Counted from the stretch's first letter, positions 829 to 18,453 are shown. The stretch is DNA of 64,000 nucleotides from Candidatus Omnitrophota bacterium (GCA_022705945.1 JAKJDL010000002.1:191150-255149), one strand, 5' to 3'. Numbers and translations: made by a program. The notes: generated from the sequence alone by a model not told the origin.

Positions 829-2409
829 ATGAGCCATCTGGGAGAGCCTTTTTGCGTTCAGGTAAGCCGGATCCTATCGGTCCAGCCGGGAGATATTTTA
901 CGGCTGATGGGGCAGACCGAGATTTTTTTAAAAGACCTTCCGTTCGTCAAGGAATGCCGCCTCATTAGCAGGGAAGGGTATCGTTCCGTGACTTTCTGGA
1001 GGGTCGAGATCGATCACGTTCCGATATCCTGGAAAGAAGAGTCGATTTTTGATCTCCGGAACGGCACCGTATCTTTCAGGGCTCTTGAGGGAGATCTCCG
1101 GGTGCTCGAGGGAGTCTGGAAACTCACGGAATGCCCGCAGGGAGGAACCGAGGTTTGGATCGAGGCGAAGGTCGAGATCGGCATTCCGGCCGTTTTTGAA
1201 AAGGCCGTCGGAGGGATGATCGTCGAAAAGATCCGGAAATTTTTTGAAACAGTTCTTGATTCGATGGAGGAGAGGATCGGTTTCGAGCGTTACCGGCGAA
1301 AGAATGAAAAATCATCCCGCATTTCCGGGTTCGGGGTAATCGGTCACCCCTACAATTATCAGCATTTTTTGAAAAACCTTCATCTCCTCAAGCTCGATTT
1401 CAAAGCGCCTTCACCCGAATTTTTAACCAAGGTTTTTGATCTGACACCTTCCTACATTTCCTACGGCGTGCAGGAGTTCCGTGACTCGGCCGGAAAAACG
1501 ACCCGCGGGGCTTTTATCGCCTGCAATATCATCCCCGAAATGCTCACGGTCGATATCCGGAAAACCGTGGCCAAGGTGGTGGAATCCTGCAAGGTCGCGG
1601 AACGGCACGGGTTCGGGATCGTCGCACTCGGAGGTTTTACATCGATCGCGGGAGAGAAATACGGCGAAGAATTCCTGAAACAGATACATATTCCCGTGAC
1701 GACCGGGAATACGCTGACGGCCGCGCTCGCGGTCGAGGGAGTCCTCAAAGCGGCGCGTCTCATGGAGACCGATATTTCCAAAGCCAAGGTCGCGGTGATC
1801 GGGGGCGCGGGGGATATCGGGAGCGCTTGCGCCCGCGTCATGGCGTTCTCGGCCAAGGAAGTCACGATCGTGAGCCGCAGTCCGGCAAACCTCAGGAAAA
1901 TGGAAAAAGAGATCAAATCGATCCGGCATGCGAAATTTCACGGCACATCGGACGCGGTGAAAGCGGTTCGGGATGCGGATATCGTGATCGGGGCGGCAAG
2001 CTCCCCCCATTCACTTCTGGAGCTCCGGCATTTCAAAAACGGGGCGATCGTCTGTGACGTCGGATTCCCGAAAAACATTGTCTACGGGGACGTGGACCGC
2101 GGCGATATCCTTGTCTTTGCCGGGGGGATTTGCTCGATCCCCTGTGAATTTCAGACCGGCCTTGAGATCGGACTGCCGTCGACCCGGATGCTTTACGGAT
2201 GTTTTTCCGAAGCGATTGTGCTGGCGCTCGAGGAGCGTTATGAGAATTTTTCGTGGGGGAAAGGCCATATTACCAGGGAGAAGATGGACGAGATCCTGGA
2301 GCTTGCCCAAAAACACGGGTTTTCGCTGGCGCCTTTCTTCTGGTCCGGAGGGATTATCACGGACGACGAGGTTCGCGCGATCGGGACGGGACTCAGGGCC
2401 GGGGTTTGA
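829..2409 (+). CDS. SRPBCC (polyketide cyclase/START-like) N-domain fused to an acyl-ACP reductase (AAR)-family NAD(P)-binding reductase
   Basis: C-terminal 350 aa aligns block-for-block with cyanobacterial AAR (FGVIGH, IPEML, ALGGFTSI, TTGNTLTA, VAVIGGAGDIGSA, DVGFPKN, ENFSWGKGHITREKMDEILELAQKHGF); N-terminal 170 aa has an SRPBCC-like pattern. Confidence 0.8.
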   Translation: MSHLGEPFCVQVSRILSVQPGDILRLMGQTEIFLKDLPFVKECRLISREGYRSVTFWRVEIDHVPISWKEESIFDLRNGTVSFRALEGDLRVLEGVWKLTECPQGGTEVWIEAKVEIGIPAVFEKAVGGMIVEKIRKFFETVLDSMEERIGFERYRRKNEKSSRISGFGVIGHPYNYQHFLKNLHLLKLDFKAPSPEFLTKVFDLTPSYISYGVQEFRDSAGKTTRGAFIACNIIPEMLTVDIRKTVAKVVESCKVAERHGFGIVALGGFTSIAGEKYGEEFLKQIHIPVTTGNTLTAALAVEGVLKAARLMETDISKAKVAVIGGAGDIGSACARVMAFSAKEVTIVSRSPANLRKMEKEIKSIRHAKFHGTSDAVKAVRDADIVIGAASSPHSLLELRHFKNGAIVCDVGFPKNIVYGDVDRGDILVFAGGICSIPCEFQTGLEIGLPSTRMLYGCFSEAIVLALEERYENFSWGKGHITREKMDEILELAQKHGFSLAPFFWSGGIITDDEVRAIGTGLRAGV

Positions 2410-2411
2410 TT

Positions 2412-5072
2412 ATGACGGCGCTGGTCACGGGTGGAACGGGATTTATCGGTTCCGCGCTGGTTCGCCATCTGCTTGCGGCCGGTTACCGCGTCCGGGTGCT
2501 GGTCCGCCAGAAAAAAGACAGCCTACTTCTTGAAAACCTTCCCGTGGAGGTGATCAACGGCGATGTAACGAACGCCCGCGCCGTCGACAAGGCCGTGGAG
2601 GGCTGTTCCGTTGTTTTCAACCTTGCCTCGCTTTATGCCTTCTATCCTTTCTGGATGAAACATCCGAAGGCAATCTACAGGATCAACGTTGACGGTACGG
2701 TCAATATGCTTGAGGCTTCGTTGCGCCACGGCGTAAAAAAATTCATTCACACAAGCACCATTGCCGTCCTTAACCGTCCCGTGGATGGCGGTTCCGTGGA
2801 CGAGAACGCCGGCTTTGATCCGCGTGGTGCGAGCCATTATGCCCGATCGAAATATCAGGCCGAACGGGAAGTCCTTAAGTATTATTCCCGCGGATTGCCG
2901 GCCGTGATCCTGAATCCGGCCGTTGTATTCGGGGAACGCGACCACAAACCGACCCCGTCGGGGGACGTGATCGTGAAATTCCTGAACCGGAGTTATCCCG
3001 GTTATTTTGATACCCTTTGGTCCGTGGCCGATGCCGACGATGTCGCAAAAGCTCATCTTGCGGCCGTGGAGCGGGGAAAGGCGGGCGAGAGGTATATCCT
3101 TGCGAGCGGCGGGCATTACACGCTGAGGGAGATCTTCGGAATACTTGAAAAAATCACCGGGATCAAGGCGCCGCGTCTCCGGATTCCTTACGCAGTTCTT
3201 TTTAGTTTCACTTACCTTGAAGAAGCCGTCGCGTATTTTCTTTTCAGGACCAAGCCGCTTATAGCGACCGAGGGCGTGAAGTTCTGCAAAGCATCCCTTC
3301 CATGTGACGGCTCCAAAGCGATTCGGGATCTCGGATATGCGCCGACGCCGTTTGAGGAAACACTTGCCACGGCCGTCGCCTGGTACCGGAAGAACGGTTA
3401 CGTGGAGCCGAGAGGTTTTTTCCGGATCAGAACCCACGGGTCACGTCTCGTCCGTTTTTTGATGCGCCGGCTGGGTATGGCAGGTTATACGGACAGATTG
3501 AGCCCGGGAACAATCTTTTTTTTCGGCATCGTCAAGCTGCTGAATCTGCTCAAAAAGGCCGGGGCCGGGCGGGGCGAGGACGGTTGGAGGAAGGTGACAC
3601 AGTGTTATCTGAGGACGGAGCAGGCCAAATTTATCCTGACGGTCTTCAATCTGGATTTTCGCTCGGATCTGAAAACAAAAAACGAAATGACCTGCGACGA
3701 TGCCAAACGGCATTTTATTCGGAGATTCGCAAAGTTTCTGAAAACCCAGCCGCTTTTTTGTCAAAAGCTCGAATGGCACAGGTTCTGCGCGAAGTCGGGG
3801 CCGCAGCCTTTTGCGGATATCGTTCAGGCCGAGTTTGACGCCTCCGGAAATCTTCTGCGCTTTGAACCCCGGTTCGATCCGGATGACGAACGAGGGAGGT
3901 TCGAAGCTATGCCGACCGAGCTCAAAGAGCTGCTTTTTGAGGGTCTGCGTCAGGTTTACAACGCTACCCTCGAACTTCCGGATAAAAAACGGCCGCTTCG
4001 TCTCAAAGCGGAGTGGCACCGATGGCTCTCGAAACATTCCGGCTGTTTTTCTGGCGAATGGTTCAAGCGCGCGAAAGAATTGGGCGAGCGTGTGATGAGC
4101 GCCGCATTCATACGTTTTGAGACGCTGCCGGCCGGGCTTTCCGCCCGGGGTTCCGGACGTTTCCGGGTTCCCTGGTTCATCCGTTCCAAACATCCCGGCT
4201 ACGGTCCGCTCACCATCGTGTGCCGCCTGACGCCGGACCTTGAAGCGGCAGACATCTGGATTCAGTTTAGCCATGTGCCTGTTGACGGGGTCCCGGCCCA
4301 GGAAGTGCTGAACAAAATAAAAAAGGAATGGGGGACGAAGGGTGATCTTCCGTTTCCGGCTTCCGGATACCGGCAGGATATGACCCCGGAGGTGTGTTCT
4401 TCCGGCCGTACCGCTGACGGGACCGTGCATGTCTATCAATGTCTTGATTTCCAGCCTTTTCTTCAAGTGAGGAATCAGCTGAACAAACGTTTTGGAGGCC
4501 GCGCGAAGCAGGTGATCTCCTCGGCGGCGCTCCTGATCTGGAAGCTCTCCCAATACCGCGAATTTGAGGACATCAAGTTCGCGGTGCCGGTGGATCTGCG
4601 TGCGGCGGGGGGAAGGGAGCGGACACTCGGTTTTATCTTCATCCGTCCGGCTGTCTATTTTGACAAACAACGCGCCGACCGCGGATTTTTTTCATTCCAA
4701 CAGGAATTTAATCGCCAGCTCTTTTCGGCCCGTAAGCGGCGCGGCGAGAGCTACCGCCTTCTTGAAATTTACACGGCGGCCCCGCACGCCCTTTATGCCG
4801 TGACCGCAAAATTCCTTATGAGGCCTCTCCAGGATTTTGTCGGCTCGCTCGGGATCACGATTATCAAGAAGGCCGATTTTTTTGTGGCGCCGGCAAGCGA
4901 TGTTCATACGGACGGTTTTATCGCGTTCAGCAATTTTACGCTTCCTTCCGAGGACGGCGGGAAAGTAGGCGTCGTTAGCATGAAGGGGCCGAGGGAAAAG
5001 GTTGAAAAATACATGAATGTTCTTCATGATGTCATGCACAGGGCGATCCGGCGCGATGAACTCTATTTTTGA
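2412..5072 (+). CDS. bifunctional protein: N-terminal NAD-dependent epimerase/dehydratase (extended SDR, 3beta-HSD-like) reductase + about 500 aa C-terminal domain with an HxxxDG acyltransferase-like motif
   Basis: TGGTGFIGS Rossmann motif and YxxxK (YARSK) in the first 340 aa. C-terminal region contains IWIQFSHVPVDGVP, which resembles the catalytic HHxxxDG of WS/DGAT, PapA5 and condensation-domain enzymes. ATG at 2412 is 2 nt after the upstream stop; the track start at 2253 lies inside the upstream gene. Confidence 0.65.
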   Translation: MTALVTGGTGFIGSALVRHLLAAGYRVRVLVRQKKDSLLLENLPVEVINGDVTNARAVDKAVEGCSVVFNLASLYAFYPFWMKHPKAIYRINVDGTVNMLEASLRHGVKKFIHTSTIAVLNRPVDGGSVDENAGFDPRGASHYARSKYQAEREVLKYYSRGLPAVILNPAVVFGERDHKPTPSGDVIVKFLNRSYPGYFDTLWSVADADDVAKAHLAAVERGKAGERYILASGGHYTLREIFGILEKITGIKAPRLRIPYAVLFSFTYLEEAVAYFLFRTKPLIATEGVKFCKASLPCDGSKAIRDLGYAPTPFEETLATAVAWYRKNGYVEPRGFFRIRTHGSRLVRFLMRRLGMAGYTDRLSPGTIFFFGIVKLLNLLKKAGAGRGEDGWRKVTQCYLRTEQAKFILTVFNLDFRSDLKTKNEMTCDDAKRHFIRRFAKFLKTQPLFCQKLEWHRFCAKSGPQPFADIVQAEFDASGNLLRFEPRFDPDDERGRFEAMPTELKELLFEGLRQVYNATLELPDKKRPLRLKAEWHRWLSKHSGCFSGEWFKRAKELGERVMSAAFIRFETLPAGLSARGSGRFRVPWFIRSKHPGYGPLTIVCRLTPDLEAADIWIQFSHVPVDGVPAQEVLNKIKKEWGTKGDLPFPASGYRQDMTPEVCSSGRTADGTVHVYQCLDFQPFLQVRNQLNKRFGGRAKQVISSAALLIWKLSQYREFEDIKFAVPVDLRAAGGRERTLGFIFIRPAVYFDKQRADRGFFSFQQEFNRQLFSARKRRGESYRLLEIYTAAPHALYAVTAKFLMRPLQDFVGSLGITIIKKADFFVAPASDVHTDGFIAFSNFTLPSEDGGKVGVVSMKGPREKVEKYMNVLHDVMHRAIRRDELYF

Positions 5073-7284
5073 TCCGAATCAGTATTACTGGAACGTGTAT
5101 GCGCTCCCGCATTTCATTGTCGGGGTGCTTATCATACTTGAGGGTCTGTTCGTGTTCCTTCAGGGTAAACGGACCGTCACACACGTTGCCTACGCGATCA
5201 CGAATTGGACGGCGGGTATCTGGCTTACCGGGGTCGGGATCGTCTGTTCAATGACGGATGAGACGGCGGCGGTCATTGTTTCGCGCTGGTACACCTGGTT
5301 CGGGATCATTTTTATCACGCCCGCCGTTTATTTTTTTATCGCATCGTGGGACCCCGGATTCCTCAGGCGCAAGGCGAAATGGGTCGTGATTCACTATTTT
5401 TGCGCACTTGGCTTTTATCTCGCCTGCGGCCTCACGCCCTGGATCGTTGCGACGGTGTATCCGTATTCGACCGGTTTTTTCCCGAAGGCCGGCCCTCTGG
5501 AAGGGGTGTTCATCGTTTGGTTCTATGCGCTCATGATTCTTTCGTTCGCCAATTTCATGCGGATTTGCCGGAAGGCCGATACCCCTATCCTCAAGAAGAA
5601 TACAAAGCTTATGTTTGTTGCCTATGCGATTGCCTTCCTCGGCTCCATCGAATACCTGCCCAATTACGGAATCCATATTTTCCCGGTTGCGTTCCTGCCG
5701 ATGTTTGTTTTCACGACAATCATCGGCTACTGCGTGATCCGCTACCGCCTCATGGATATCGAGACCGTGATCCACAAAACGGTCATGTGGTTTGTGACGA
5801 GCGCCGTGGCCGTGCTTCCCTTTGCCGGGATCATCTCTTCGGTTCAGCCGATGATGAGGGATTTGAAGCCTGCGGCCGCGGGATTTTATTTCCTGGCGAT
5901 GCTTTTCATTTTCTATTTTTATTACCGCGCCGTGCAGCCGCGTCTCGACCGCCTCTTCCAGTGGCGGCAGACGAACCTGATGGCCGTTCTCGACGGGTTT
6001 TTGAGTGAGCTGGTCCACCTCAAGAATATCCGCGATCTCCTTCAGAGCTTCTCGCGTCTGATGCGCCGTGAGCTTTTTGTGAGGCGGCTTTCGGTTTATC
6101 TTTATGATGAGCAGTCGAAACACTTTGTCCCCGCCATCGCGAAAGGGATCCGCAGTCTCCGTCCCGTGCCCCAGGGAAGCCGATTGCTTCAGTGGCTTGC
6201 GGAGACCGACGGAGCCGTGATCGGTGAGCTTGCCGTGAGCGATCCTGCGGTCGACGAGTTCCGTTCCGAAATGGAAAACTTTTTTTCTGATACGGGCACC
6301 CTGGCCGTATTGCCCTTTGTGCTGGGCGACCGCCTGATCGGCTTTGCGAACCTCGGGAGGAAAAGTAACCTGCGCCGCTACGGTTTCAACGAGATCCGGT
6401 TCCTGAACCGCCTCAAGGTGCCCGTCACGATCGCTCTTTCAAATTCGATGCGGTATGAGGATATCCGCAAGCTTTCCGACGAACTCCAGCTCTGGAACCA
6501 GGCTCTCGAGGAGCGCGTCGACCAGAGGACGCGCGAGCTCGCGAAGACGCAGGAACAGCTCGTGCAGGCCGAAAAGCTCGCGACGCTCGGAACGCTCGCG
6601 GGCGGAGTCGCGCACGAGATCAATAACCCCCTCACGGCGGTACTCACAAACGCGCAGATCCTCCGTATGAGCGCACGGGAGGACGATATCGAATCGATCT
6701 CCCTGATTGAGGAAGGTGCGAAACGATGCCAGGGGATCGTACACAAGCTCATGAAATACGCCCGGAAAACCACTGAGGAAGCGCCTTTGAAAGCGATTGA
6801 TCTTGGCGAGGTTGTGAAGGGAACGGTGGCTCTTCTGGGTTTTCAATTCAAACAGGAAAATATTGAGGTCAAAACGAGGCTTGCGAAGACCCCGCCCGTC
6901 CGGGGAATCGCGGGGGAGATTGAGCAGGTCCTCACGAACCTTCTTGTGAACGCGAAAGACGCGATCCTCGCGGTCCGTCTCCCCGCATCTGCGGGGAATA
7001 CGGCACCCGGGCAGGGAAAGATCATCATAGAAACCCGCAAAGCTCCGGATGCGGTCGAGCTGATAGTGACTGACGACGGCGCGGGTATCCCTAAAGAAAA
7101 TCTTAAAAAGATATTCGATCCTTTCTTTACGACCAGGGATGTCGGCGCAGGCACCGGGCTCGGCCTTTCGGTCAGCCTCGGTATCCTAAAGCGCCACGGC
7201 GCCGCGATTTCGGTCGTGAGCGAGCCCGGCCGCGGCTCCGCCTTTACCATCCGGTTTCCCGATCAAGATCCTGTCTCAAAATGA
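5017..7284 (+). CDS. sensor histidine kinase (N-terminal 7TM sensor, GAF-like, HisKA, HATPase_c)
   Basis: 7 predicted TM helices, HEINNPLT H-box, N/G1/G2 boxes (DDGAGIP, GTGLGLS). Start is ambiguous (5017 or 5056) and overlaps the upstream stop. Confidence 0.85.
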   Translation: MFFMMSCTGRSGAMNSIFDPNQYYWNVYALPHFIVGVLIILEGLFVFLQGKRTVTHVAYAITNWTAGIWLTGVGIVCSMTDETAAVIVSRWYTWFGIIFITPAVYFFIASWDPGFLRRKAKWVVIHYFCALGFYLACGLTPWIVATVYPYSTGFFPKAGPLEGVFIVWFYALMILSFANFMRICRKADTPILKKNTKLMFVAYAIAFLGSIEYLPNYGIHIFPVAFLPMFVFTTIIGYCVIRYRLMDIETVIHKTVMWFVTSAVAVLPFAGIISSVQPMMRDLKPAAAGFYFLAMLFIFYFYYRAVQPRLDRLFQWRQTNLMAVLDGFLSELVHLKNIRDLLQSFSRLMRRELFVRRLSVYLYDEQSKHFVPAIAKGIRSLRPVPQGSRLLQWLAETDGAVIGELAVSDPAVDEFRSEMENFFSDTGTLAVLPFVLGDRLIGFANLGRKSNLRRYGFNEIRFLNRLKVPVTIALSNSMRYEDIRKLSDELQLWNQALEERVDQRTRELAKTQEQLVQAEKLATLGTLAGGVAHEINNPLTAVLTNAQILRMSAREDDIESISLIEEGAKRCQGIVHKLMKYARKTTEEAPLKAIDLGEVVKGTVALLGFQFKQENIEVKTRLAKTPPVRGIAGEIEQVLTNLLVNAKDAILAVRLPASAGNTAPGQGKIIIETRKAPDAVELIVTDDGAGIPKENLKKIFDPFFTTRDVGAGTGLGLSVSLGILKRHGAAISVVSEPGRGSAFTIRFPDQDPVSK

Positions 7285-7742
7285 TCCCGGAAACCGGGTC
7301 ATGGAAGTATGAAATAGCGTCAGGCTCTGAAAGGGCCGTAATCCATGAAACCGTATGGTTTTTCCGCCCCTCGTTTTGGTTTTTGTAGTTTTTTTCTGGG
7401 GCTCCTAATTTGGTTAAAACGAGATGACCTTATTGGAAAAACATTTTTTATTTTTACGGTTTTTATTGGTGGGCGGGGAGTGCTTTTCGGCTTTGATTTA
7501 TTTGTGCCTATATTAATAAAAGAGATAAATGCTTGTGAAACCGCCTCTCGTCTTGTCGCGGGTAAAGCTGGGCTATGGGGGAAACTCGAAAAGCGATCCG
7601 GATACAGTTATCTGGGGTTTTGTACCCGGCCCTTCAACTCAGCGCCCCCAAATCAGCTTAACCCGTTGATCGGATTACAGTTAAATTTCTAAATACCGAT
7701 ATAAGTAGAGGGGAAGGGTGTGTTCAACGCGAGGATTTCAAT

Positions 7743-8279
7743 ATGAAAAAAATACTGGTAATAGATGATGATGTTCTTGTCCTGAGGGCGATCAGCAAGT
7801 TGCTTACGATGAACAATTACAACGTGACAGAAGCTAAATCCGGCGAGGAGGCGGCGGGAATATTAAGTAGTGCCGATTTTGATTTAATAGTGTCCGACAT
7901 TAGGATGGCGGGGATGGACGGGATTCAGCTTGTTGAACGTTTGAGGAGTTCCGGCAAGAACACGCCGGTGATTTTCGTGACGGGGTATGCGAGCGAAAAT
8001 GCGCCGGTGGAAGCTTATCGGCTTGAGGTTAAGGACTATGTGTTGAAACCCTTTGATAAGGATGATTTGCTTCGCAAAGTCGAAAAGAATCTGGCTCTTC
8101 GGGAAGCGGAATTTGCAAAAAAGGGTGATTTGTGTCGAACCGTGCGTGGCTTGGTGAGAGATTTTGAAAAAAACAATAGCATGAATATTTACGAAAATGA
8201 AAACCTGAAGAAGTTTATCAGCGAACTCAACGCTGCGCTTTTTGCAGAGGAAAAAGAGCAGGCAAAAAAGTATGAATAA
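7743..8279 (+). CDS. response regulator, stand-alone receiver domain with C-terminal coiled-coil tail
   Basis: KILVIDDD..., D at the phospho-site (LIVSDIRM), conserved T/K (FVTGY, LKPF); no DNA-binding output domain. Confidence 0.85.
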   Translation: MKKILVIDDDVLVLRAISKLLTMNNYNVTEAKSGEEAAGILSSADFDLIVSDIRMAGMDGIQLVERLRSSGKNTPVIFVTGYASENAPVEAYRLEVKDYVLKPFDKDDLLRKVEKNLALREAEFAKKGDLCRTVRGLVRDFEKNNSMNIYENENLKKFISELNAALFAEEKEQAKKYE

Positions 8280-9186
8280 TAGAAAGTTGGGATTTTTTTT
8301 GAGCGTTCTTCGGAAAGAGGCGAATTATTTTTGGGAGCGGCTGGTAGTTTTTTCAATTCGGGTAAGATATCGCTATTGGCGGCGTTTATTATGCCGAGTT
8401 GTTGGCAATGCGACATCTCTTGCGGCTCTGTATTACCGTGTTTTTAGACGCCTAAGATTTCGCACAATTCGGTTGTTTGTGTTTTTTGTTTGGAAATTGT
8501 GGCTGGATAAGGTTGAGGGGTTTGAGAATATTTCCTGGAATGAATCTGCGGTTATCGTTTCAAATCATCTCAGTTACTATGATTTCTTTGTTTTGGCGTC
8601 TGTTCTTGAGCGTCAAACCGTATTCATTGCTACCAAAGGGCTAAATGACAGATCGTTTGTGGGATGGTTTATGAAACTGGACACGATTGTTTATGTTGAT
8701 CGCGAAAAGCCGGGTTACGGTTTTTTTAAGGAAATGGTCAGGCAGACGAAGATGAAAAAAAATGTTGTCATCTATCCTGAAGGAACGAGGTCCCGAAGCG
8801 GAAAGATGTTGGCCCCCAAACCGGGATTTATCAAATTGGCGCTTCTTTGCGGAGTGCCCGTCATCCCTCTGGCGATGCGGGGTACTTATGAAATTCTTCC
8901 GCCGCATGAGCATGTTCCCAAGATGAAAAAGTGCAGCATTCATATAGGCGAGAAGCTTTATATTTCACCTTCCAATCCGCTTTTTCGGGATGTTTTTTAC
9001 CGTTGCGCGAAGGATGGCAAGTATACGAATCTGACAGACGAAGGGATCGAAGAAATTGCATTCCGGATTATGAACCGGATCAGGTTAATGTCCGGGCAGG
9101 AGTGGGATGAAAGCGCTCTCCCCAAGGCCAGATTATACGGTCTTGCGGATGCTTCGCCGAGGGCGGTCGAGTTTTGTTGCCAATGA
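8272..9186 (+). CDS. PlsC-like lysophospholipid acyltransferase (second copy)
   Basis: NHLSYYD (HxxxxD) and PEGTRSRSG blocks; ATG at 8272 chosen (the track TTG at 8242 overlaps the RR stop). Confidence 0.8.
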   Translation: MNNRKLGFFLSVLRKEANYFWERLVVFSIRVRYRYWRRLLCRVVGNATSLAALYYRVFRRLRFRTIRLFVFFVWKLWLDKVEGFENISWNESAVIVSNHLSYYDFFVLASVLERQTVFIATKGLNDRSFVGWFMKLDTIVYVDREKPGYGFFKEMVRQTKMKKNVVIYPEGTRSRSGKMLAPKPGFIKLALLCGVPVIPLAMRGTYEILPPHEHVPKMKKCSIHIGEKLYISPSNPLFRDVFYRCAKDGKYTNLTDEGIEEIAFRIMNRIRLMSGQEWDESALPKARLYGLADASPRAVEFCCQ

Positions 9187-9836
9187 AAAAGGCGGCCTTT
9201 TTTGATGTCGATGGCACGCTGGTTGCATGCCAGTCGCAAAAAAAATTTTCCGATTTTTTATTTTCAGAAAAGATACTCGGAGTTTTCCACATTCTTGTAA
9301 TCTCCTGTTGGTTTGCGGGATATCGGCTTGGACTGTTAAGAAGCAGCATTGGCATGAGAAGAGTTTTTTATCGGTTCCTTTCTTTTGATTCGGCCGAGCG
9401 CGTAAACAATCTGATGATAAAGGCATATCAGGATCTTATCCGTCCGGCATTAAACCTGTTCCTGAAAGAGCGTATTTTGGGTCTGAAAAAGCAAGGCTAT
9501 TTGATTGTTCTGCTTTCAGGGACCCTTCAGCAGTTTTGCAACCTGATTGCGGATGAGTTTGGTGCGGATCAAGCTTTCGGGACGAGGCTGATCGTAGAAG
9601 ACGGACATTTCAGAGGGAAATGGGAGGGAGACATTTTAGAAGGAGAGGCAAAGGCCAGGTTTGTGAAGAAATATTCCAAGGCGAATGACATCAGTTTGGA
9701 ACAGAGCATCGCTTATAGTGATAGTTCGGCGGACTTGCCTCTTTTGGAGATTTGCGGTTCTTCCGTTGCGGTCAATCCTGACCCGGCTCTTAAAACAATC
9801 GCTCAATCGCGCTCCTGGGAAATTTTGAATGGCTAA
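9183..9836 (+). CDS. HAD-superfamily hydrolase, subfamily IB (phosphoserine-phosphatase-like)
   Basis: FFDVDGTLV motif I, S/T motif II (LLSGT), K and DSSAD motif III/IV; ATGA overlap with the upstream acyltransferase stop. Confidence 0.75.
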   Translation: MKKAAFFDVDGTLVACQSQKKFSDFLFSEKILGVFHILVISCWFAGYRLGLLRSSIGMRRVFYRFLSFDSAERVNNLMIKAYQDLIRPALNLFLKERILGLKKQGYLIVLLSGTLQQFCNLIADEFGADQAFGTRLIVEDGHFRGKWEGDILEGEAKARFVKKYSKANDISLEQSIAYSDSSADLPLLEICGSSVAVNPDPALKTIAQSRSWEILNG

Positions 9837-12141
9837 TCTTCTGGAACAATACCTGTTGGCGTCGGTACTTACGGCAATCCTGACATTTTTTTTGGCCGTT
9901 CTTGTCAGCTGGAAGAACTACAGGCGGAAGTTGAACATCCTGTATTCGTTTTGGGCGTGCACAGTTGCCCTGTGGAGTCTGATGCTGGTTTTCAACGTGC
10001 TGGCTAAAGACCACGGCACGGCTTTACTATGTGTACGGCTGCTTCATTTCTGGGCGATCCTCCTGCCTGCGGTATATGTTCATTTTGTCTTGCTCTTTCT
10101 CTGCAAGGACGCGGCATTCAACGCGCTTATTAAGGGGACGTATGCCTTTTCGTTTTTACTGATTGCGCTGAATTTCTCACCCTGGTTTTTGTCTGTCGAA
10201 TATCGGGAGAAATTTCGTTTTTTTGCGGCGAAACCCCTCGCTTTTTACCCCATACATATAGCGATGTTCATTGCCTGTGTATGCTTCGCGATCATACAGC
10301 TTTATCTCAGCTGGCGAAAAGCCGAGGGCAGTTTCAAACGGCAGATCTGGTACTTTTTGCTGGCAACCTTAATTGGATATTCGGGCGGGATCACGAATTA
10401 TCTGATTAATTACAACATCCTTATCTATCCTCTTTATCCGTTTGGAAACTTCACAATTTGCGCTTATGTCATTGTGATCGGTTTCGGTATTCTCAAGTAT
10501 CAACTGATGGATATTTCCGTCATCATCAAGCGGACGGTGGTTTTTACTGGGCTGTTCGGTATTTTAATGGCTGTGGTGGGGATAGTTACGACGCTTGCTC
10601 ACAACTATTTGGGACAATTTATCGGGATCGGGCAGACAACACGTCAGATACTGAGCATCCTCATCGCGATGCTGCTGGCTGACCCGATCAGGAAGCTTCT
10701 GGTCAATCTCACGGACAGGTTCCTGTTCCAGAAAAAATATAATTATCACAAGCTCCTGAAAGACGCTTCGCGGGGGATGTCGAACATCGAATCCCTCGAG
10801 CACCTGCTCGGCCTTGTGGTCCATTTCGTGACGATGAAAATGCGCGTGAAGAACGCGTCGGTGCTGATGCGCGACATCCATTCGAGCGATTTCAATCTCG
10901 TTTACCAGCGCGGTTACGACAAAAAATTCCTTTCACTGACCCTGAATGACGAGGATCCGCTGATTGACTATATCGGGCATCATAAGGAGGCGGTCGATAT
11001 CGAGAGGATCAAGGAGAAGATCGAGGCGGCGCGCTACGGACGCAAGGATAAAAAAGAGGCCGATCATTGGGACTATGAGGCGATCCGGGACAGGATGATC
11101 TACCTGCAGGCGACCTGCTGCGTGCCGAGCTTCCTGGGTCGCGAGCTCAAGAACATCCTGATGCTTGGAGAAAAAAAATCGGGCGAACATTACTCTACTG
11201 AGGACCTGAACCTTCTTTACACACTCGCGCAGGAATCCGCTATCGCGATCGAGAACGCGCGGCTCTATGACGAGGCAAAGCGCCGCTCGCTTGATCTCGA
11301 ACAGATCAACGATCAACTTGAGCGTTCACGGGGCCTTTTAGAGCGCGCGCTAAACGAGGCCGAAGGTGCCAATAAACAGCTCCAGGACGCGCAGGCCCAG
11401 CTCATCCACGAGCAGAAGATGGCGACCCTGGGACGTCTGGCGGCTTCGGTCGGTCATGAGGTCAATAACCCGCTCACGATCCTTTCGATGAACGTGTCTC
11501 GCGCGATACTCAAATACCGCAAAGATCCGGATCTCAAGGTCTCCGAGATCATGGATGTGTTCGACAAGATGGAGAAAAATATCGAGCGCATCAAGGCGGT
11601 CGTGAATACCCTCACGGGGCTTCTCAAAAAGTCGGAGAAAGGGAAGTTTGAACCGCTTTCGCTCAAGCTGATCCTGGAAGAGACGCTTCCGCTCGTTCAG
11701 TTTCAGACCTATCTCGATAATCTTTCCGGGACGGAAGTGGATTTCAATGTGCCTGGCAATATCCCGCTCATCCGCGGCGACCTGGAGCGTTTGCAGGAAG
11801 TTTTCCTTAATATGTTCATCAACGCCTATCACGCGATGGCGGGCAAGCGTCACCGGAAGATCGCGGTGCGAGCCGAGATTGATCAGGAAAATCAGGGGAT
11901 GGTCGCGATCCATTTTACCGATAACGGCTGCGGGATGACGGAAGAGGTCCGGAAGAAAATTTTCAATTACGGGTTCACGACGAAGCCCTCCGGCAAAGGG
12001 TCCGGCCTCGGGCTTTACATGTGCAAATATATTATCGAGCTGCACGGCGGCACGGTTTTGGTGAAGTCGCGTCTCGGCGAAGGGACGACGTTTACGCTTA
12101 CGCTTCCGGTGTATGGGGAAGACTTTAAAATCAGCTCATAG
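9829..12141 (+). CDS. sensor histidine kinase, paralog of 5017..7284 (7TM sensor, GAF-like, HisKA, HATPase_c)
   Basis: Same architecture and shared blocks (YQLMDISVIIKRTV vs YRLMDIETVIHKTV; HEVNNPLT). Start overlaps the HAD stop by 8 nt. Confidence 0.85.
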   Translation: MANLLEQYLLASVLTAILTFFLAVLVSWKNYRRKLNILYSFWACTVALWSLMLVFNVLAKDHGTALLCVRLLHFWAILLPAVYVHFVLLFLCKDAAFNALIKGTYAFSFLLIALNFSPWFLSVEYREKFRFFAAKPLAFYPIHIAMFIACVCFAIIQLYLSWRKAEGSFKRQIWYFLLATLIGYSGGITNYLINYNILIYPLYPFGNFTICAYVIVIGFGILKYQLMDISVIIKRTVVFTGLFGILMAVVGIVTTLAHNYLGQFIGIGQTTRQILSILIAMLLADPIRKLLVNLTDRFLFQKKYNYHKLLKDASRGMSNIESLEHLLGLVVHFVTMKMRVKNASVLMRDIHSSDFNLVYQRGYDKKFLSLTLNDEDPLIDYIGHHKEAVDIERIKEKIEAARYGRKDKKEADHWDYEAIRDRMIYLQATCCVPSFLGRELKNILMLGEKKSGEHYSTEDLNLLYTLAQESAIAIENARLYDEAKRRSLDLEQINDQLERSRGLLERALNEAEGANKQLQDAQAQLIHEQKMATLGRLAASVGHEVNNPLTILSMNVSRAILKYRKDPDLKVSEIMDVFDKMEKNIERIKAVVNTLTGLLKKSEKGKFEPLSLKLILEETLPLVQFQTYLDNLSGTEVDFNVPGNIPLIRGDLERLQEVFLNMFINAYHAMAGKRHRKIAVRAEIDQENQGMVAIHFTDNGCGMTEEVRKKIFNYGFTTKPSGKGSGLGLYMCKYIIELHGGTVLVKSRLGEGTTFTLTLPVYGEDFKISS

Positions 12142-12338
12142 CTATTATCTCTTGGTGAAGTTTCTGAGTTTTTGCTATAAGCTATTGACTGCAGGATATC
12201 AGGCTGTTGAAGCGGCCAAAATGCTGAAACGGTTTGATCAGAGCGAAAAAACCTGGCCGGTAGCCTGTGGCAAATTCCGCAGGTTTGGGGTTATCGGTCT
12301 CAAGCTAAGGACCGTCGGCTATAAGCTACGGGTTGCAT
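12133..12338. repeat. intergenic repeat family, copy A (AGCTCATAG...TTTTTGCTATAAGCTATTG... plus a GGTTATCGG / GTCGGCTATAAGCTA unit)
   Basis: Shares its core with the copies at 12695, 13349 and 14254; starts at the HK stop codon. Confidence 0.7.
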
Positions 12339-12339
12339 A

Positions 12340-12696
12340 ATGAAAAAAATCCTGATCGTTGACGACGAGACGGGCATCGTCGAGGAGATCAAAAGTTTCC
12401 TCGCCGAGGAGGGTTATGAAGTGAGGACTGCGGATACCGCGAAGTCGGGGATCCAGGTCCTCGAGGAAATGAACCCGGACGTCGTTTTCATTGACGTGAA
12501 GCTTCCGGATATGTCCGGGATCGAGGTGCTCAGGTTCGCGAAGGAAAAGCATCCGCGGACAAGGACGGTGATGGTCACAGGATATGTGGACCAGAACCTG
12601 ATGGATGAAGCGGAGTCGCTTGGGCGGGACGCGTTTCTCCAGAAGCCCTTTGACCTTATCAGGATCGTGGAAGAAATCGAGTGCCTCACGGCGTAG
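12340..12696 (+). CDS. response regulator, stand-alone receiver domain
   Basis: KILIVDDE, phospho-Asp (VFIDVKLPDMSG), T (MVTGY), K (QKPF); 118 aa. Confidence 0.85.
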   Translation: MKKILIVDDETGIVEEIKSFLAEEGYEVRTADTAKSGIQVLEEMNPDVVFIDVKLPDMSGIEVLRFAKEKHPRTRTVMVTGYVDQNLMDEAESLGRDAFLQKPFDLIRIVEEIECLTA

Positions 12697-12800
12697 CTCA
12701 TGGTCAAGAATCCTCGGTGAATATCTTTTTGATTTTGCCGCAAGCTATTGGCTATAGGTTGTCAGCCGAATGCTGTTGGCTACAGGTTATCGGCTAACCC
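12695..12800. repeat. intergenic repeat family, copy B
   Basis: AGCTCATGGTCAAGAATCCTCGGTGAATATCTTTTTGATTTTGCCGCAAGCTATTGGCTATAGGTTGTCAGCC...GGCTACAGGTTATCGGCTAA. Confidence 0.7.
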
Positions 12801-12814
12801 CGGAGTAATGCCCG

Positions 12815-13357
12815 ATGAATTTTATTCGCACGGAAATAGACGGTGTTGTGATCATTGACCCGAAGGTTTATTCGGACGCGCGGGGTTTCTTCTTTGAAAG
12901 CTACCGCCGGGACATTTTTTTCAAAGAGGGGATCGTGGAGGAATTTGTCCAGGATAATTACAGCTCGTCCCGGAAGGGGGTGCTCCGGGGGCTTCATTTT
13001 CAGATTGAGCCGGAGGCGCAGGCGAAGCTTGTGCGGGTGACGAGGGGTTCGGTTTTTGATGTTGCCGTGGACCTGAGGAAGGGTTCAGGAACGTTCGGGA
13101 AATATTGCGCGGTGACGCTCTCGGCCGAAAACAAAAAGATGCTTTATATTCCCAAAGGGTTCGCTCACGGGTTTTGTGTGCTGGAAGACAACACCGAGTT
13201 CTTCTATAAATGCTCCGGATACTATTCGCCCGCGCACGAGCGAGGGATCATCTGGAATGACCCGCAGCTTGCGATCCCATGGCCGAAGCTCAACTGCGAG
13301 TTCATCCTTTCCGATAAGGACAGGAAGTATCCCACCCTGGAAGCTTATAGCTCATAG
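12815..13357 (+). CDS. rfbC: dTDP-4-dehydrorhamnose 3,5-epimerase
   Basis: Cupin-type RmlC signature (DPKVYSDARGFFFE, GLHFQ, KGFAHGF). Confidence 0.9.
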   Translation: MNFIRTEIDGVVIIDPKVYSDARGFFFESYRRDIFFKEGIVEEFVQDNYSSSRKGVLRGLHFQIEPEAQAKLVRVTRGSVFDVAVDLRKGSGTFGKYCAVTLSAENKKMLYIPKGFAHGFCVLEDNTEFFYKCSGYYSPAHERGIIWNDPQLAIPWPKLNCEFILSDKDRKYPTLEAYSS

Positions 13358-13410
13358 CCAAGAACCTTCGGGAAGTGTTTTTGGGATTTCGCTATCAGCT
13401 GATTTTCGGG
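13349..13410. repeat. intergenic repeat family, copy C
   Basis: AGCTCATAGCCAAGAACCTTCGGGAAGTGTTTTTGGGATTTCGCTATCAGCTGATTTTCGGGG; supplies stop codons to both convergent genes. Confidence 0.65.
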
Positions 13411-13837
13411 GCCGGATATTCCAGCTGTGGGGGAGTGTGACGGGGGCCTTATGCCTGATCTCGACGGGGAAGGTTTTTTTGAAGGTATCATAGAAGCACA
13501 TGCCGGATTCTTTGTGGCAGTAATAGAAAACACCCGTCAAAGTTACGTTCGTTTTTCCCGGGGAACCCCGAAAGAGCAGCTTGTAGGGCGGATTGAACGG
13601 GCTGAAATCCTTGCCACATGTCCGGCCGAAATTGACAATCGAAGCGTCCTCCGAACTGCAACTGAGTTTATAGGGGGAATCCGTTGTGAACTGATATCCC
13701 TCGGGAAGGCTGAAGCGGAGGGCGATTACAGAGGGCTCACCCTCAGGCGTTTTCCCCCGGTCTTTCGGTATCGTGAGGATCAGGAAGAGGGCGACGGCGC
13801 CTGTAGCCAAAACAGCGAAAAGCATCTTCGTTTTCAA
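13352..13837 (-). CDS. hypothetical signal-anchored/secreted protein
   Basis: N-terminal hydrophobic helix (MKTKMLFAVLATGAVALFLILTIP); the last 15-19 codons run into repeat copy C; AT-rich divergent promoter region upstream of its start. Confidence 0.4.
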   Translation of the reverse strand: MKTKMLFAVLATGAVALFLILTIPKDRGKTPEGEPSVIALRFSLPEGYQFTTDSPYKLSCSSEDASIVNFGRTCGKDFSPFNPPYKLLFRGSPGKTNVTLTGVFYYCHKESGMCFYDTFKKTFPVEIRHKAPVTLPHSWNIRPRKSADSEIPKTLPEGSWL

Positions 13838-13965
13838 GAAAACTCCTCCGTCCCTAAAATATTTTATCGCTGCGCCTGTCAGGAAAGTTTAAAATAGTGT
13901 CGCTATGCGCGAAATATTCATAAAATATTATCGTCAAGGATTATTTTATTCCAAACCCTAATTTT

Positions 13966-14011
13966 CACCCACTCCAACACCCGGGCCTAAGTCCCGGTGT
14001 TGGAGTGGGTG
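13966..14011. promoter_or_regulatory. near-perfect 19-20 bp inverted repeat (hairpin, 7-nt loop)
   Basis: CACCCACTCCAACACCCGGG-cctaagt-CCCGGTGTTGGAGTGGGTG, immediately upstream of the RBS/GTG of the DUF167 gene. Confidence 0.5.
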
Positions 14012-14027
14012 AGAGGATGGAAAAGCG

Positions 14028-14246
14028 GTGAAGATTACGGTTACGGTGAAGGCGAATTCGAAAGAGGAGAAAATCGAGGAAACCGGCCCCGGGGAATATC
14101 GCTTGCGGGTCAAGGCCCCGCCGGTTGAGGGCCGTGCGAACGAGGCCGTGATCAAACTTCTCGCCGCTCATTTCGGGGTTCCGAAGAGCCGTGTCGAGAT
14201 CCTGGCGGGCACTTCCTCAAAACGGAAGCTTGTGAGTATCGGATAG
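14028..14246 (+). CDS. DUF167/YggU-family small protein
   Basis: VEGRANEAVIKLLAAHFGVPKSRVEILAGTSSKRKLV matches the YggU consensus; GTG start with a GAGAGGA RBS. Confidence 0.8.
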   Translation: MKITVTVKANSKEEKIEETGPGEYRLRVKAPPVEGRANEAVIKLLAAHFGVPKSRVEILAGTSSKRKLVSIG

Positions 14247-14253
14247 TTCGCGC

Positions 14254-14340
14254 AACTCACAGCCAAGAATCTTCGACGAATACTTTTTTGATTTTGCTAT
14301 ACAGGCCTCAGGCTGTCGGCTATATACTGCAGGCTGAGAG
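14254..14340. repeat. intergenic repeat family, copy D
   Basis: AACTCACAGCCAAGAATCTTCGACGAATACTTTTTTGATTTTGCTATACAGGCCTCAGGCTGTCGGCTATATACTGCAGGCTGAG. Confidence 0.7.
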
Positions 14341-14416
14341 AGTTGAGGGTTTGAATCTGCAGACCGCAGTCGCAGGTTTGTTTCCGCAATCGTTATGCAA
14401 TGCCCGTTGAACGTTG

Positions 14417-14425
14417 TGCTAGAAT
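14417..14425 (+). promoter_or_regulatory. extended -10 promoter element (TGcTAGAAT), 8 nt upstream of the ATG; leaderless candidate
   Basis: TTGAAC at 14407 is too close to act as a -35. TAGAAT ends 8 nt before ATG 14434 and there is no SD. Confidence 0.4.
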
Positions 14426-14433
14426 AAAAAATC

Positions 14434-16782: not shown

Positions 16783-16800
16783 AAAAAAGTATAAAAAAAA

Positions 16801-16829
16801 GATGCAAATATTTTGTTTATGGATATAAT
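16801..16829 (+). promoter_or_regulatory. promoter-like -10 (GATATAAT) upstream of the DUF11 lipoprotein gene
   Basis: TATAAT at 16824-16829 in an A-rich spacer; a 65-nt leader with a strong SD (AAGGAGG) follows. Confidence 0.35.
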
Positions 16830-16894
16830 CAACGCCTGCTGACAGTTATCGTAGACTGAGCTAACACAGCTTTAACCAACCAAGGAGGCATCAA

Positions 16895-18367
16895 ATGAAG
16901 CTCTCAAAGAGTCTCATGACGGTACTCGCCCTGGTTCTTGTTGTCGGAACGGGATTGGTCCTTTCCGGCTGCGCGACCTGTTGTGGTGAGTCAGCTCCTG
17001 CAAAACCGGCAATGAAGTGCGCGTTCGGTGTGCAGGGGTGCAATAAAGACGCAAGCGCGGTTTGGATCGAGAAATCGATGCCTGACCAGGTTGTGGTCGG
17101 ACAACCTTTTCAATACACTCTTCAGGTGACAAATCTTCGGGGCTGCGCTCTGGAAGATGTGGTCATAGTTGAGCGTGCATCGGATGGACTGCAGATTCAA
17201 TCCGGTGAAGAGGGTCTGAATATTGGTTTCATGAAACCTAATGAAGTGAGACAGATTGTTTTGACGGCCGTTGCGAGTCAGGGCGGCAGTCCTTCGACCT
17301 GCACGACGGCAGATTACAAGCCGGTGCTGTGCTGCGGGACGGAAGCGATCTCTCCGAGCCTGGCGATAGCGCTTGAGGCTCAGGCTACGGGCACACCGTG
17401 CGATGTTATCCCTGCGAAAGTCACCGTTTCGAACCCCGGAACGGGCATGGCTCGCAATGCCAACATCAGCATGGATCTTCCGAAGGGTCTCACGACGACG
17501 GATGGCCAGTCCAGCGTGATGATCAATGTCGGCGATCTTGCCGGCAATGATGCGAAGGCTTACAACGTCAACTTGAAATCCGCGCAGTCGGGTTCTTACT
17601 CGATTAAGGCGAATGCGGAGGCTTCGGGTCTGACGGCTGCGTCCAACGCGGTAACGATTGACGTGAGAAACTGCGACCTGAACGCCAGCGTGAGCGGTCC
17701 GGCCAAGGTATTCATCACGAAGGATGCAAGCTATAAAGTTTCGGTGCAGAACACCGGTGACGCGGATGCCGCCAGTACGGACGTGACGGCGAGCATTCCC
17801 GCCGGAATGAAGTATGTATCGGCTTCAAACGGCGGTTCGGTGTCCGGCAATTCCGTGGTTTGGAATGTCGGGACGCTCGGGGCGGGGAAGAGCGTATCGA
17901 TGGATATGACTCTTAACGCTGTGAGCGGCGGTTCCGGCATGAGCGTGGCGACGGCGAAAGCCTATTGCTGCCAGGGTGAGGGAAGCTGCCCGACCAACAT
18001 CGAAGGGATCCCGGCGCTTCTGTTGGAAGCGATTGACGTGGCAGACCCGATCCAGGTTGGGGGTACGGAGAAGTATTACATCACCGTGACCAACCAGGGC
18101 TCGGCGCCTGATACGAACATCGTTTTGAGCGTCGGCTTTGAGGAGCAGTTTGATTACCAGTCCTCGAATGGTCCGACGGCCGCGGTGAAAGAAAGCGTCA
18201 AGAGCGTGGAATTTGCACCGCTAGCCTCTCTTGCGGCGGGTCAGAAAGCGACTTGGGAAGTGATTGGCAAGGCCAAGTCGGTTGGTGATCACCGCACCTC
18301 CATCAAGATCACGAGCGATTTTCTCAAGAGATCGGTGGACGAGACAGAATCAACCCACGTTTATTAA
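16895..18367 (+). CDS. cell-surface lipoprotein with DUF11 (conserved repeat domain) repeats
   Basis: Lipobox LVLSGC; repeated V(T/S)VxNxG...blocks typical of DUF11; several Cys pairs. Confidence 0.75.
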   Translation: MKLSKSLMTVLALVLVVGTGLVLSGCATCCGESAPAKPAMKCAFGVQGCNKDASAVWIEKSMPDQVVVGQPFQYTLQVTNLRGCALEDVVIVERASDGLQIQSGEEGLNIGFMKPNEVRQIVLTAVASQGGSPSTCTTADYKPVLCCGTEAISPSLAIALEAQATGTPCDVIPAKVTVSNPGTGMARNANISMDLPKGLTTTDGQSSVMINVGDLAGNDAKAYNVNLKSAQSGSYSIKANAEASGLTAASNAVTIDVRNCDLNASVSGPAKVFITKDASYKVSVQNTGDADAASTDVTASIPAGMKYVSASNGGSVSGNSVVWNVGTLGAGKSVSMDMTLNAVSGGSGMSVATAKAYCCQGEGSCPTNIEGIPALLLEAIDVADPIQVGGTEKYYITVTNQGSAPDTNIVLSVGFEEQFDYQSSNGPTAAVKESVKSVEFAPLASLAAGQKATWEVIGKAKSVGDHRTSIKITSDFLKRSVDETESTHVY

Positions 18368-18388
18368 TCGAGGGTTGTAAGATCATGC

Positions 18389-18425
18389 AAAAGCGCCCCG
18401 TTGTAAAACGGGGCGCTTTTGTTTT
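18389..18425 (+). terminator. rho-independent terminator
   Basis: AAAAGCGCCCCG-ttgtaaaa-CGGGGCGC followed by TTTTGTTTT. Confidence 0.8.
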
Positions 18426-18453
18426 ATGAACTGAATCAAAGGGAGACTGAAAA

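Follow-up and report, generated by a model that had tools for sequence, protein, structure and literature searches.

Lipid enzymes and a kinase sensor half as an exchangeable unit in a two-component locus of the phylum Omnitrophota

Introduction

In Bacillus subtilis, the control of a lipid-modifying enzyme is linked to DesK-DesR, in which the kinase is a multi-pass membrane protein without a large extracellular domain; DesK has five transmembrane (TM) helices and a HisKA_3 core, and DesR binds DNA and controls desaturase transcription. Bifunctional PlsC-HAD proteins are known from the mycobacterial Rv2483c type. The present analysis concerns a locus in a stretch of 64,000 nucleotides (nt) from Candidatus Omnitrophota bacterium (GCA_022705945.1 JAKJDL010000002.1:191150-255149; the whole stretch is called the window) that encodes two sensor histidine kinases (HK1 and HK2), two receiver proteins (RR1 and RR2) and, between the kinases, an acyltransferase (PlsC2) and a phosphatase (HAD). 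Copies of this locus occur throughout the phylum Omnitrophota, and their comparison by sequence showed a replaceable unit, composed of RR1, the lipid enzyme or enzymes and the sensor (membrane) half of HK2, that is set in a signalling frame which is itself conserved. Unlike this locus, DesK-DesR has neither an enzyme-coupled receiver nor cassette variation, and unlike the bifunctional PlsC-HAD proteins, PlsC2 and HAD of the window are encoded by two overlapping genes that lie behind a receiver gene and ahead of a sensor kinase gene.

The phcBSRQ genes of Ralstonia form a quorum-sensing unit in which a membrane kinase works with a lipid methyltransferase and with regulators that consist of a receiver only (PMC8578825). 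As in the Omnitrophota locus, a lipid-enzyme gene (PhcB) adjoins a membrane kinase (PhcS) and receivers without DNA-binding domains (PhcR and PhcQ), and the sequences of the synthase and of the sensor fall into the same groups, according to signal type. The Ralstonia unit differs in that the sensor domain of PhcS is of another kind, there is one kinase as opposed to two of the same architecture and the receiver, in contrast with those of the window and its relatives, is neither fused nor translationally coupled to the enzyme, output passing through the LysR regulator PhcA. In addition, any signal of the Omnitrophota locus would be hypothetical. A further likeness is to comQXPA (PMC4008528) and agrBDCA (PMC8768832), in which the signal-making enzyme or enzymes and the polytopic N-terminal half of the kinase are hypervariable and co-evolve as a block, set against a conserved response regulator and a conserved cytoplasmic half of the kinase. 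Those systems, unlike the Omnitrophota locus, have peptide signals, DNA-binding regulators (ComA and AgrA) and transcriptional autoinduction, and in the Omnitrophota locus the enzymes are lipid enzymes of which whole classes, rather than alleles, differ between types.

Receivers attached to metabolic enzymes are known in general (PMC5847659). Relatives of the window resemble CheB, PleD/WspR and RpfG in that an enzyme is attached to a canonical receiver in which every phospho-acceptor residue is present, an arrangement that would bring catalysis under the control of phosphorylation, whereas the receiver and enzyme of the window are products of separate, overlapping genes. So far, and judged from sequence, the locus would belong with two known kinds of system, namely two-component systems whose output is enzymatic and synthase-sensor loci that are polymorphic. 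No description of PlsC, ketosynthase, HMG-CoA reductase, aldehyde dehydrogenase or alpha/beta hydrolase as a receiver output was found in the literature searched, and searches on the locus itself, on HisKA_7TM function and on receiver-acyltransferase fusions returned nothing specific.

Results and discussion

Gene order and distribution

The genes and segments on which the comparisons depend are listed below. Coordinates are positions in the whole window; labels beginning with L denote related loci and those beginning with P denote proteins related to PlsC2.

829-2409, + strand: SRPBCC domain and acyl-ACP-reductase (AAR) homologue, first gene of the upstream operon; matches to TIGR04058 and Polyketide_cyc
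2412-5072, + strand: SDR-CT550, an HpnA-like SDR with a 546-aa C-terminal domain of unknown family; match to TIGR03466
5056-7284 (alternative start 5017), + strand: HK1, sensor histidine kinase; HisKA, HATPase_c and weak GAF_3 matches
7285-7742: gap of 458 nt and low GC between HK1 and RR1
7345-7590, + strand: 5' relic of a third kinase, within an open reading frame (ORF) at 7345-7692; tblastn matches to intact short kinases
7743-8279, + strand: RR1, receiver with a 60-aa helical tail; Pfam Response_reg, 108.5 bits
8272-9186, + strand: PlsC2, PlsC/LPLAT-family acyltransferase; Pfam Acyltransferase, the start overlapping the RR1 stop by 8 nt
9183-9836, + strand: HAD, HAD-IB family phosphatase and partner of PlsC2; TIGR01490
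9829-12141, + strand: HK2, second sensor histidine kinase; HisKA_7TM, HisKA and HATPase_c
9829-10690, + strand: membrane sensor half of HK2 (codons 1-287, nine TM helices); HisKA_7TM at 46.8 bits and AlphaFold2 model
10691-12141, + strand: conserved cytoplasmic half of HK2 (GAF-like domain, coiled coil, DHp and CA)
12340-12696, + strand: RR2, stand-alone 118-aa receiver and conserved partner of HK2; Pfam Response_reg
7214-10690, + strand: mosaic block comprising the kinase relic, RR1, PlsC2, HAD and the HK2 sensor half; blastn against L042
12815-16782, + strand: downstream frame of RmlC-like epimerase, DUF167 and HAE3/MMPL lipid exporter; Pfam and NCBIfam

These gene positions, all on the + strand, agree with an earlier account made from the sequence alone (the sequence-only reading), as do the presence of a receiver-PlsC-HAD unit between the kinases (7743-9836) and the overlap of HK1 with the end of the AAR operon, the HK1 start lying upstream of the SDR-CT550 stop codon at 5072. 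Its statement that each kinase is followed by a receiver-only regulator held for RR2 after HK2; RR1 does not abut HK1, from which it is separated by the gap with the relic, and carries its 60-aa tail.

Successive genes from RR1 to HK2 overlap by 4-8 nt and RR2 sits 198 nt 3' of HK2. Two apparent operons were recognized, one from the AAR-like gene to HK1 and the other from RR1 to HK2, probably including RR2. Their boundaries are drawn from the gene overlaps alone since, in a scan of 7000-13000, sites that matched promoter or terminator consensus sequences were no commoner than in shuffled sequence.

A genome scan anchored on HK2, in a collection of one genome per species, found this order of genes at 67 loci of Omnitrophota, and a metagenome scan identified 80 further loci, for a total of 127 after removal of duplicates. 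A stand-alone RR2 followed HK2 in 82/105 loci. Upstream of HK2 were HK1 (50/69 loci), an AAR-like gene (43/69), short kinases (36/69) and an RR1-type receiver (38/69), and downstream were RmlC (26/66) and the MMPL/HAE3 exporter (19/66).

Co-variation of sensor halves with neighbouring enzymes

The mosaic nature of the window was evident from comparisons with L042, its backbone sister (85% identity for MMPL, 81% for RR2 and 83% for RmlC), and with L020, its closest relative by cassette. Residues 1-250 of HK2 were 58-77% identical to those of L020, which has the same cassette, as opposed to 17-33% identical to those of L042, whereas residues 300-770 were 78-95% identical to L042 and less so to L020. 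By blastn, the window and L042 were colinear over 1324-7213 and over 10691-18500, with no similarity between these segments. The intervening block had a GC of 0.43-0.47 compared with 0.51-0.58 outside and a lower GC at third codon positions than the flanks (0.48-0.51 for RR1, PlsC2 and HAD). Its right breakpoint, at codon 287 of HK2, falls between the ninth membrane helix and a run that is invariant from T295, close to both.

These breakpoints bear on an explanation that we consider improbable, in which linkage occurs without functional matching and the conserved 3' end of HK1 and cytoplasmic half of HK2 are simply anchors for homologous recombination, so that everything between the two would move as a block. 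Both breakpoints lie where strong conservation starts, that at 7213 near the HK1 stop and that at 10691 before the T295 run, and a search of 6800-11000 for repeats revealed no flanking repeats and no signs of mobile elements; these are points in its favour. It would also make RR1, with similarly low probability, an ordinary single-domain receiver that acts as a phosphate sink or relay, as such receivers often do (PMC8578825), the enzymes being merely co-transcribed. On the other side, the pairing of sensor type with cassette persists over deep divergence of the backbone, down to cytoplasmic identities of 58-63%, and a like coupling exists between HK1 and another neighbour (see below).

Over all loci, clusters of HK2 sensor halves coincided with the identity of the immediately upstream gene. 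For 861 pairs with cassette labels assigned by hand, the sensor identity was 44% for the same cassette versus 24.5% for different cassettes while the cytoplasmic halves were 71% identical in both groups and the identities of the two halves were uncorrelated (Spearman coefficient 0.03). With automatic labels for the upstream gene family (65 non-redundant loci, 2080 pairs), sensor identities were 40.8% and 25.6%, respectively (Mann-Whitney p 9.5e-53), with cytoplasmic halves 70% identical in both groups, and comparable sensor values, 44.1% versus 26.0% (p 1.9e-23), were obtained for metagenome-only pairs. Viewed the other way, 87% of pairs with a sensor identity of at least 45% shared the upstream gene family compared with only 4% of pairs below 30%. 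Some HK2 pairs combined cytoplasmic halves of 95-97% identity with sensor halves of 19-32% identity. Two loci from one metagenome, L101 and L103 (Ga0247727_10000635 and Ga0247727_10000761), had HK2 cytoplasmic halves that were 95.5% identical and sensor halves that were 31.7% identical. Their cassettes were of different types, KS+PEMT-like and Methyltransf_20, a hint that such types may co-exist.

The corresponding relationship was noted for HK1 and the gene that precedes it. Identities between HK1 sensor halves were 60-93% among loci with an upstream SDR-CT550 and 27-36% between loci with and without it (70% versus 31%), whatever the similarity of the C-terminal parts.

Alternative cassettes between RR1 and HK2

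At least ten alternative cassettes were found at the conserved position between RR1 and HK2.

PlsC and HAD (window, L020, L009 and L044)
Methyltransf_20 enzymes, of two kinds
ketosynthase, ACP, enoyl-CoA hydratase and GDSL lipase
ketosynthase, SDR and PEMT
two 4HBT thioesterases and a PEMT/ICMT-like methyltransferase
PlsC-like gene and AAR-like gene
HMG-CoA reductase
aldehyde dehydrogenase
alpha/beta hydrolase
FabH-like KAS III
HpaB
FadL/TodX outer-membrane channels
empty position, with no genes between RR1 and HK2, in some relatives

All cassettes other than the empty ones consist of lipid or acyl-chain enzymes or of transporters of hydrophobic compounds. FadL/TodX-type channels occur within or beside cassettes at L029 6476-7864, L044 7035-8450 and L055 7527-8894 as well as in L101, L113 and L114.

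A variable synthase and polytopic sensor half beside a conserved kinase core and response regulator is the pattern of comQXP (PMC4008528) and agr (PMC8768832), and in phcBSRQ, likewise, a lipid methyltransferase gene accompanies those for a membrane kinase and for regulators with a receiver only, the PhcB and PhcS sequences being grouped by signal type (PMC8578825). Because of this pherotype signature and the phcBSRQ precedent, a private lipid-signal channel is the main alternative to the reading proposed below, although we regard it as unlikely. The cassette would make a diffusible lipid-derived signal for which the co-varying HK2 sensor half would be the cognate receptor. Candidate signals, each equally doubtful, would be a fatty-acid methyl ester, from thioesterases and a methyltransferase, or an acid like diffusible signal factor (DSF), from a crotonase; RR1 might, again with rather low probability, provide post-translational autoinduction of the synthase while MMPL and FadL move the signal. 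In the unlikely event that this is correct, every lineage of Omnitrophota would have a private lipid signal that it both produces and detects, a lipid counterpart of agr/comQXP in an uncultured and possibly host-dependent phylum. Consistent with such a channel, six different cassettes were present among loci with MMPL sequences that were 90-96% identical, the modules of L101 and L103 differed despite their nearly identical kinase cores, and FadL/TodX genes lie inside some cassettes. However, PlsC with HAD, HMG-CoA reductase and PEMT resemble enzymes of bulk membrane lipid rather than signal synthases, the locus contains two sensor-enzyme pairs in series, not one, and it has no DNA-binding regulator for transcriptional autoinduction. 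Nor were types within one species demonstrated, the metagenome scan having yielded no near-identical relative of the window (best 88% identical).

Receivers and receiver-enzyme fusions

RR1 consists of a receiver at residues 1-118 followed by the 60-aa helical tail, for which no family match was found in Pfam, whereas RR2 is a bare receiver with no further domain. Receiver profiles were built from stand-alone receivers picked by position alone. On these profiles, RR1 scored 134.5 bits as RR1-type versus 90.4 bits as RR2, and RR2 scored 188.9 bits as RR2 versus 94.2 bits as RR1. Residues D8, D9, D52, K102 and P103 were invariant and T80 was at least 90% conserved in 39 aligned RR1-type receivers, and RR2 carries the same acidic pair, acceptor Asp, Thr and Lys residues. 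The RR1 tail has a motif in common with that of L020, which, like the window, combines a separate RR1 with a PlsC cassette. Where relatives have a separate RR1 gene, its stop codon either overlaps the start of the following enzyme gene or directly adjoins it.

In other relatives, the receiver was covalently joined to the enzyme.

receiver fused to PlsC: L009 (468 aa)
receiver fused to HMG-CoA reductase: L010
receiver fused to aldehyde dehydrogenase: L019
receiver fused to ketosynthase: L004/L011, L100, L109 and L118
receiver, at the C-terminus, fused to alpha/beta hydrolase: L024, L034, L040, L126 and L154

The fused receivers all scored far higher on the RR1 profile than on the RR2 profile (e.g., 140 versus 84 bits) and keep D8, D9, D52, T80 and K102. 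Aligned to the window, the L009 fusion was 48% identical to RR1 and 61% identical to PlsC2, with a 20-aa linker in place of the RR1 tail and the first 30 residues of PlsC2. No new fusions were among the best 120 matches of a profile search with the 39 RR1-type receivers, all of which were stand-alone receivers of about 124 aa. Because the RR1-type receivers of relatives are fused to lipid enzymes, the neighbouring enzyme is the likely output of RR1. That receivers have been joined independently to enzymes of five classes is difficult to account for unless control is direct, and thus weighs against linkage without functional matching, as does the divergence of RR1 between cassette types, which is greatest in alpha4 and beta5, the usual output face.

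PlsC2 matched PF01553 with 96.2 bits and has the HX4D motif HLSYYD at residue 99 and PEGTR at residue 169, and HAD matched TIGR01490 with 130.2 bits, over the cutoff of 98.3, its DxDGT motif being DVDGT at residue 8. PlsC-HAD fusions with domains in the same order as the window genes were present among the closest PlsC2 relatives (P0368, P0369, P0375 and P0385), so PlsC2 and HAD probably form one functional unit. In another relative, P0377, a PilZ domain, which binds cyclic di-GMP (c-di-GMP), is fused to a PlsC2-family acyltransferase. From the PilZ-PlsC and receiver-PlsC fusions together, the PlsC2 enzyme family appears to have been placed under the control of signalling domains more than once.

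Proposed mechanism

The reading that we tentatively favour, from sequence data, is that the kinases would sense lipids and be matched to the enzymes encoded nearby, which RR1 would control post-translationally. RR1 would be a phospho-switch with the adjacent enzyme as its direct target, reached by docking in the window and by covalent fusion in relatives, so that phosphorylated RR1 would regulate PlsC2, with HAD, directly and lipid chemistry would be controlled post-translationally rather than by transcription. The membrane sensor halves of HK1 and HK2 would each be matched to the enzymes encoded immediately upstream, and the simplest reason for such matching would be that the sensor binds a lipid made by those enzymes, as in product sensing or a checkpoint. 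HK1, together with the short accessory kinases where present, would feed RR1, and HK2 would feed RR2, assignments made by position only. The product would most likely be a lineage-specific envelope lipid, its synthesis starting with the AAR/SDR pathway upstream and its export being by the HAE3/MMPL pump downstream.

Several observations tell against this scheme of direct control. All of its support is from comparative genomics of metagenome-assembled genomes, and sensor and cassette may have been inherited together simply because they are physically linked between two conserved anchors for recombination. In the window, RR1 is not covalently joined to an enzyme, RR1 and PlsC2 being separate genes, and the 60-aa tail of RR1 is absent from the L009 fusion. 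The kinase-receiver pairing is positional, and RR1 occurs without HK1 in L009 while HK1 occurs without RR1 in approximately 13 loci. A neighbour-joining bootstrap of 150 receiver domains gave exact-clade support of 30/100 for RR2 and 8/100 for RR1, and it was because of this weak support that the profile-scoring test was adopted. The RmlC-DUF167-MMPL/HAE3 frame belongs to the sub-clade of the window and is present in only about a third of loci, and a single envelope-lipid product is uncertain because the enzyme classes are so diverse.

Were RR1-type receivers to switch enzymes directly, lipid metabolism would join the short list of post-translational two-component targets and several new classes of receiver output (PlsC, ketosynthase, HMG-CoA reductase, aldehyde dehydrogenase and hydrolase) would be added. 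To our knowledge, no ligand is known for the HisKA_7TM family. For this reason, the co-variation of sensor half and enzyme would be a rare handle on HisKA_7TM sensing, each cassette pointing to a candidate class of ligand. Cassette-like exchange of a sensor and enzyme unit in a conserved frame, across a phylum without cultured representatives, also bears on how Omnitrophota cells may tailor or advertise their envelope.

The two kinases and the relic of a third

HK1 and HK2 were 24% identical over their full length by BLASTP (E 3e-45), and profile-profile alignment of their orthologue families with hhalign gave a probability of 100%, with an E value of 5e-79 and 716 aligned columns. AlphaFold2 models (pLDDT 75.8 for HK1 and 67.5 for HK2) had identical topology: the chain forms seven TM helices, interrupted between TM4 and TM5 by a small beta hairpin, and two more TM helices, after which come an alpha/beta GAF-like domain, a long coiled helix, DHp and CA. 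HisKA and HATPase_c were detected by Pfam in both kinases, the H-boxes (AHEINNPLT and GHEVNNPLT) and G boxes being visible in the translations. HK2 matched HisKA_7TM (PF16927) with 46.8 bits, over the cutoff of 28.6, as did 22/22 of its orthologues, whereas the Pfam match of HK1 to HisKA_7TM was not significant; HK1 is a member by profile and fold only, given its end-to-end alignment with the HK2 family and the same helices in its model. GAF_3 scored 24.3 bits in HK1, under the cutoff of 27, with GAF found in most HK1 orthologues, and was present in 15/22 HK2 orthologues though not detected by Pfam in HK2 of the window; in both models, an alpha/beta domain occupies the position expected for GAF, between the membrane domain and DHp. 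In a Foldseek search of the PDB with the full HK2 model, only kinase cores (ZraS, WalK and HK853) were matched, and the membrane and GAF parts matched nothing. Most columns of the HK2 cytoplasmic half were invariant over the 22 orthologues.

The orthologues of HK1 (50-78% identical) and of HK2 (53-76% identical) were nearly all from Omnitrophota, and many were on the same contigs. Some HK1 orthologues are hybrids of 1140-1176 aa with the order 7TM-GAF-HisKA-HATPase-REC-HisKA-HATPase, i.e., two kinase cores split by a receiver (L052 7298-10720; also L028, L041, L053, L054, L061 and L064). The 24% identity between the kinases, as opposed to 50-78% within separate phylum-wide orthologue groups, indicated that the HK1/HK2 split is ancient.

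These results bear on several claims of the sequence-only reading. Its description of the kinases as paralogues of one architecture was borne out, and the pairwise alignments that it had called for gave the 24% identity of HK1 and HK2 and 30% identity for RR1 and RR2. The long conserved blocks that it noted extend to an alignment over the full length, but the blocks themselves are essentially the kinase core; similarly, its 7TM-GAF label was apt for the 7TM core but not for the nine membrane helices, and GAF was sub-threshold in HK1 and undetected in HK2. In agreement with that reading, a Pfam scan of RR1 and RR2 detected no DNA-binding domain, and signalling by protein-protein contact became the best reading in view of the covalent fusion of RR1-type receivers to lipid enzymes in relatives. 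It had allowed that output domains might have gone unnoticed in the receivers; for RR1, the separately encoded neighbouring enzyme appears to be such an output, and RR2 is a bare receiver.

That reading had further proposed that a kinase-receiver module was duplicated locally and in tandem in this genome, and that the duplication took in lipid-modifying enzymes or took shape around them. The end-to-end common architecture of the kinases and the relatedness of the receivers are in keeping with this proposal, which is nonetheless very improbable. The orthologue identities rule out a recent duplication, the kinases and receivers being too divergent from each other and each kinase being far closer to its own phylum-wide orthologue group than to the other kinase. 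The arrangement is older than the diversification of the sampled Omnitrophota, and the enzyme unit is one among many interchangeable cassettes, with which the HK2 sensor half moves as well.

A third class of kinase was evident in related loci, where short 7TM kinases of about 460 aa are located between HK1 and RR1. In the window, the first 50-80 codons of the ORF at 7345-7692 matched the N-termini of 25 intact short 7TM kinases (tblastn, from residue 1, E values down to 8e-14), and L020 has three intact short kinases at the position of the relic, other loci having up to four or five. Since the relic matches kinases that are intact in relatives, this class appears to have been lost from the window by deletion. 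Tandem arrays of one to five intact short kinases were noted in relatives, e.g., L034 1798-7766 and L020 3350-7781.

Neighbouring genes and minor observations

One further gene lies at the 5' end of the window.

49-705, + strand: PlsC1, PlsC-family acyltransferase

PlsC1 is directly 5' of the AAR gene, and its counterpart was found in 0 related loci. Relatives have at this position either a conserved pair of unknown genes, with products of 199 and 202 aa, of which the 202-aa one is CBM_11-like with a signal peptide, or a thiolase gene. The AAR-like protein scored 166.6 bits against NCBIfam TIGR04058, compared with a cutoff of 449.7, and is therefore considered a homologue but not an equivalog of cyanobacterial acyl-ACP reductase; it has Polyketide_cyc matches and an extra N-terminal SRPBCC domain. 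This fusion of a polyketide-cyclase-like SRPBCC domain to an acyl-ACP-reductase homologue (829-2409) is outside cyanobacteria and precedes HK1 in most loci.

SDR-CT550 scored 327 bits against TIGR03466 (cutoff 368), and the fusion was kept in 7/30 related loci, its presence being predictive of the HK1 membrane-domain type. Searches of Pfam and PDB with its 546-aa C-terminal domain returned 0 matches even at E values of 1-10, and an initial guess of a CAT/condensation-like acyltransferase, from the motif SHVPVDG, was left unsupported. A 75-aa ORF that bridges HK2 and RR2 (orf75, 12113-12340), a gene in one public annotation, was rejected as probably not a gene because it was found solely in copies of the same sequence. 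The window matched a metagenome-assembled genome, Candidatus Omnitrophica bacterium ADurb.Bin277, and the same HK2 was carried by contig MWBP01000026.1 and two independent assemblies. A receiver at 61557-61925 was rejected as part of the locus, being situated between the genes for NAD kinase and glutamyl-tRNA synthetase (GltX) and unrelated; position 61557 of this receiver-only ORF is ATC, which is not a start codon.

A REC-PAS-GGDEF-EAL protein is encoded at 19525-21696, a few kb 3' of the MMPL gene, in a position kept in L042, L007, L008, L012, L017 and L019. This protein is a possible further target of phosphotransfer that would tie the locus to c-di-GMP.

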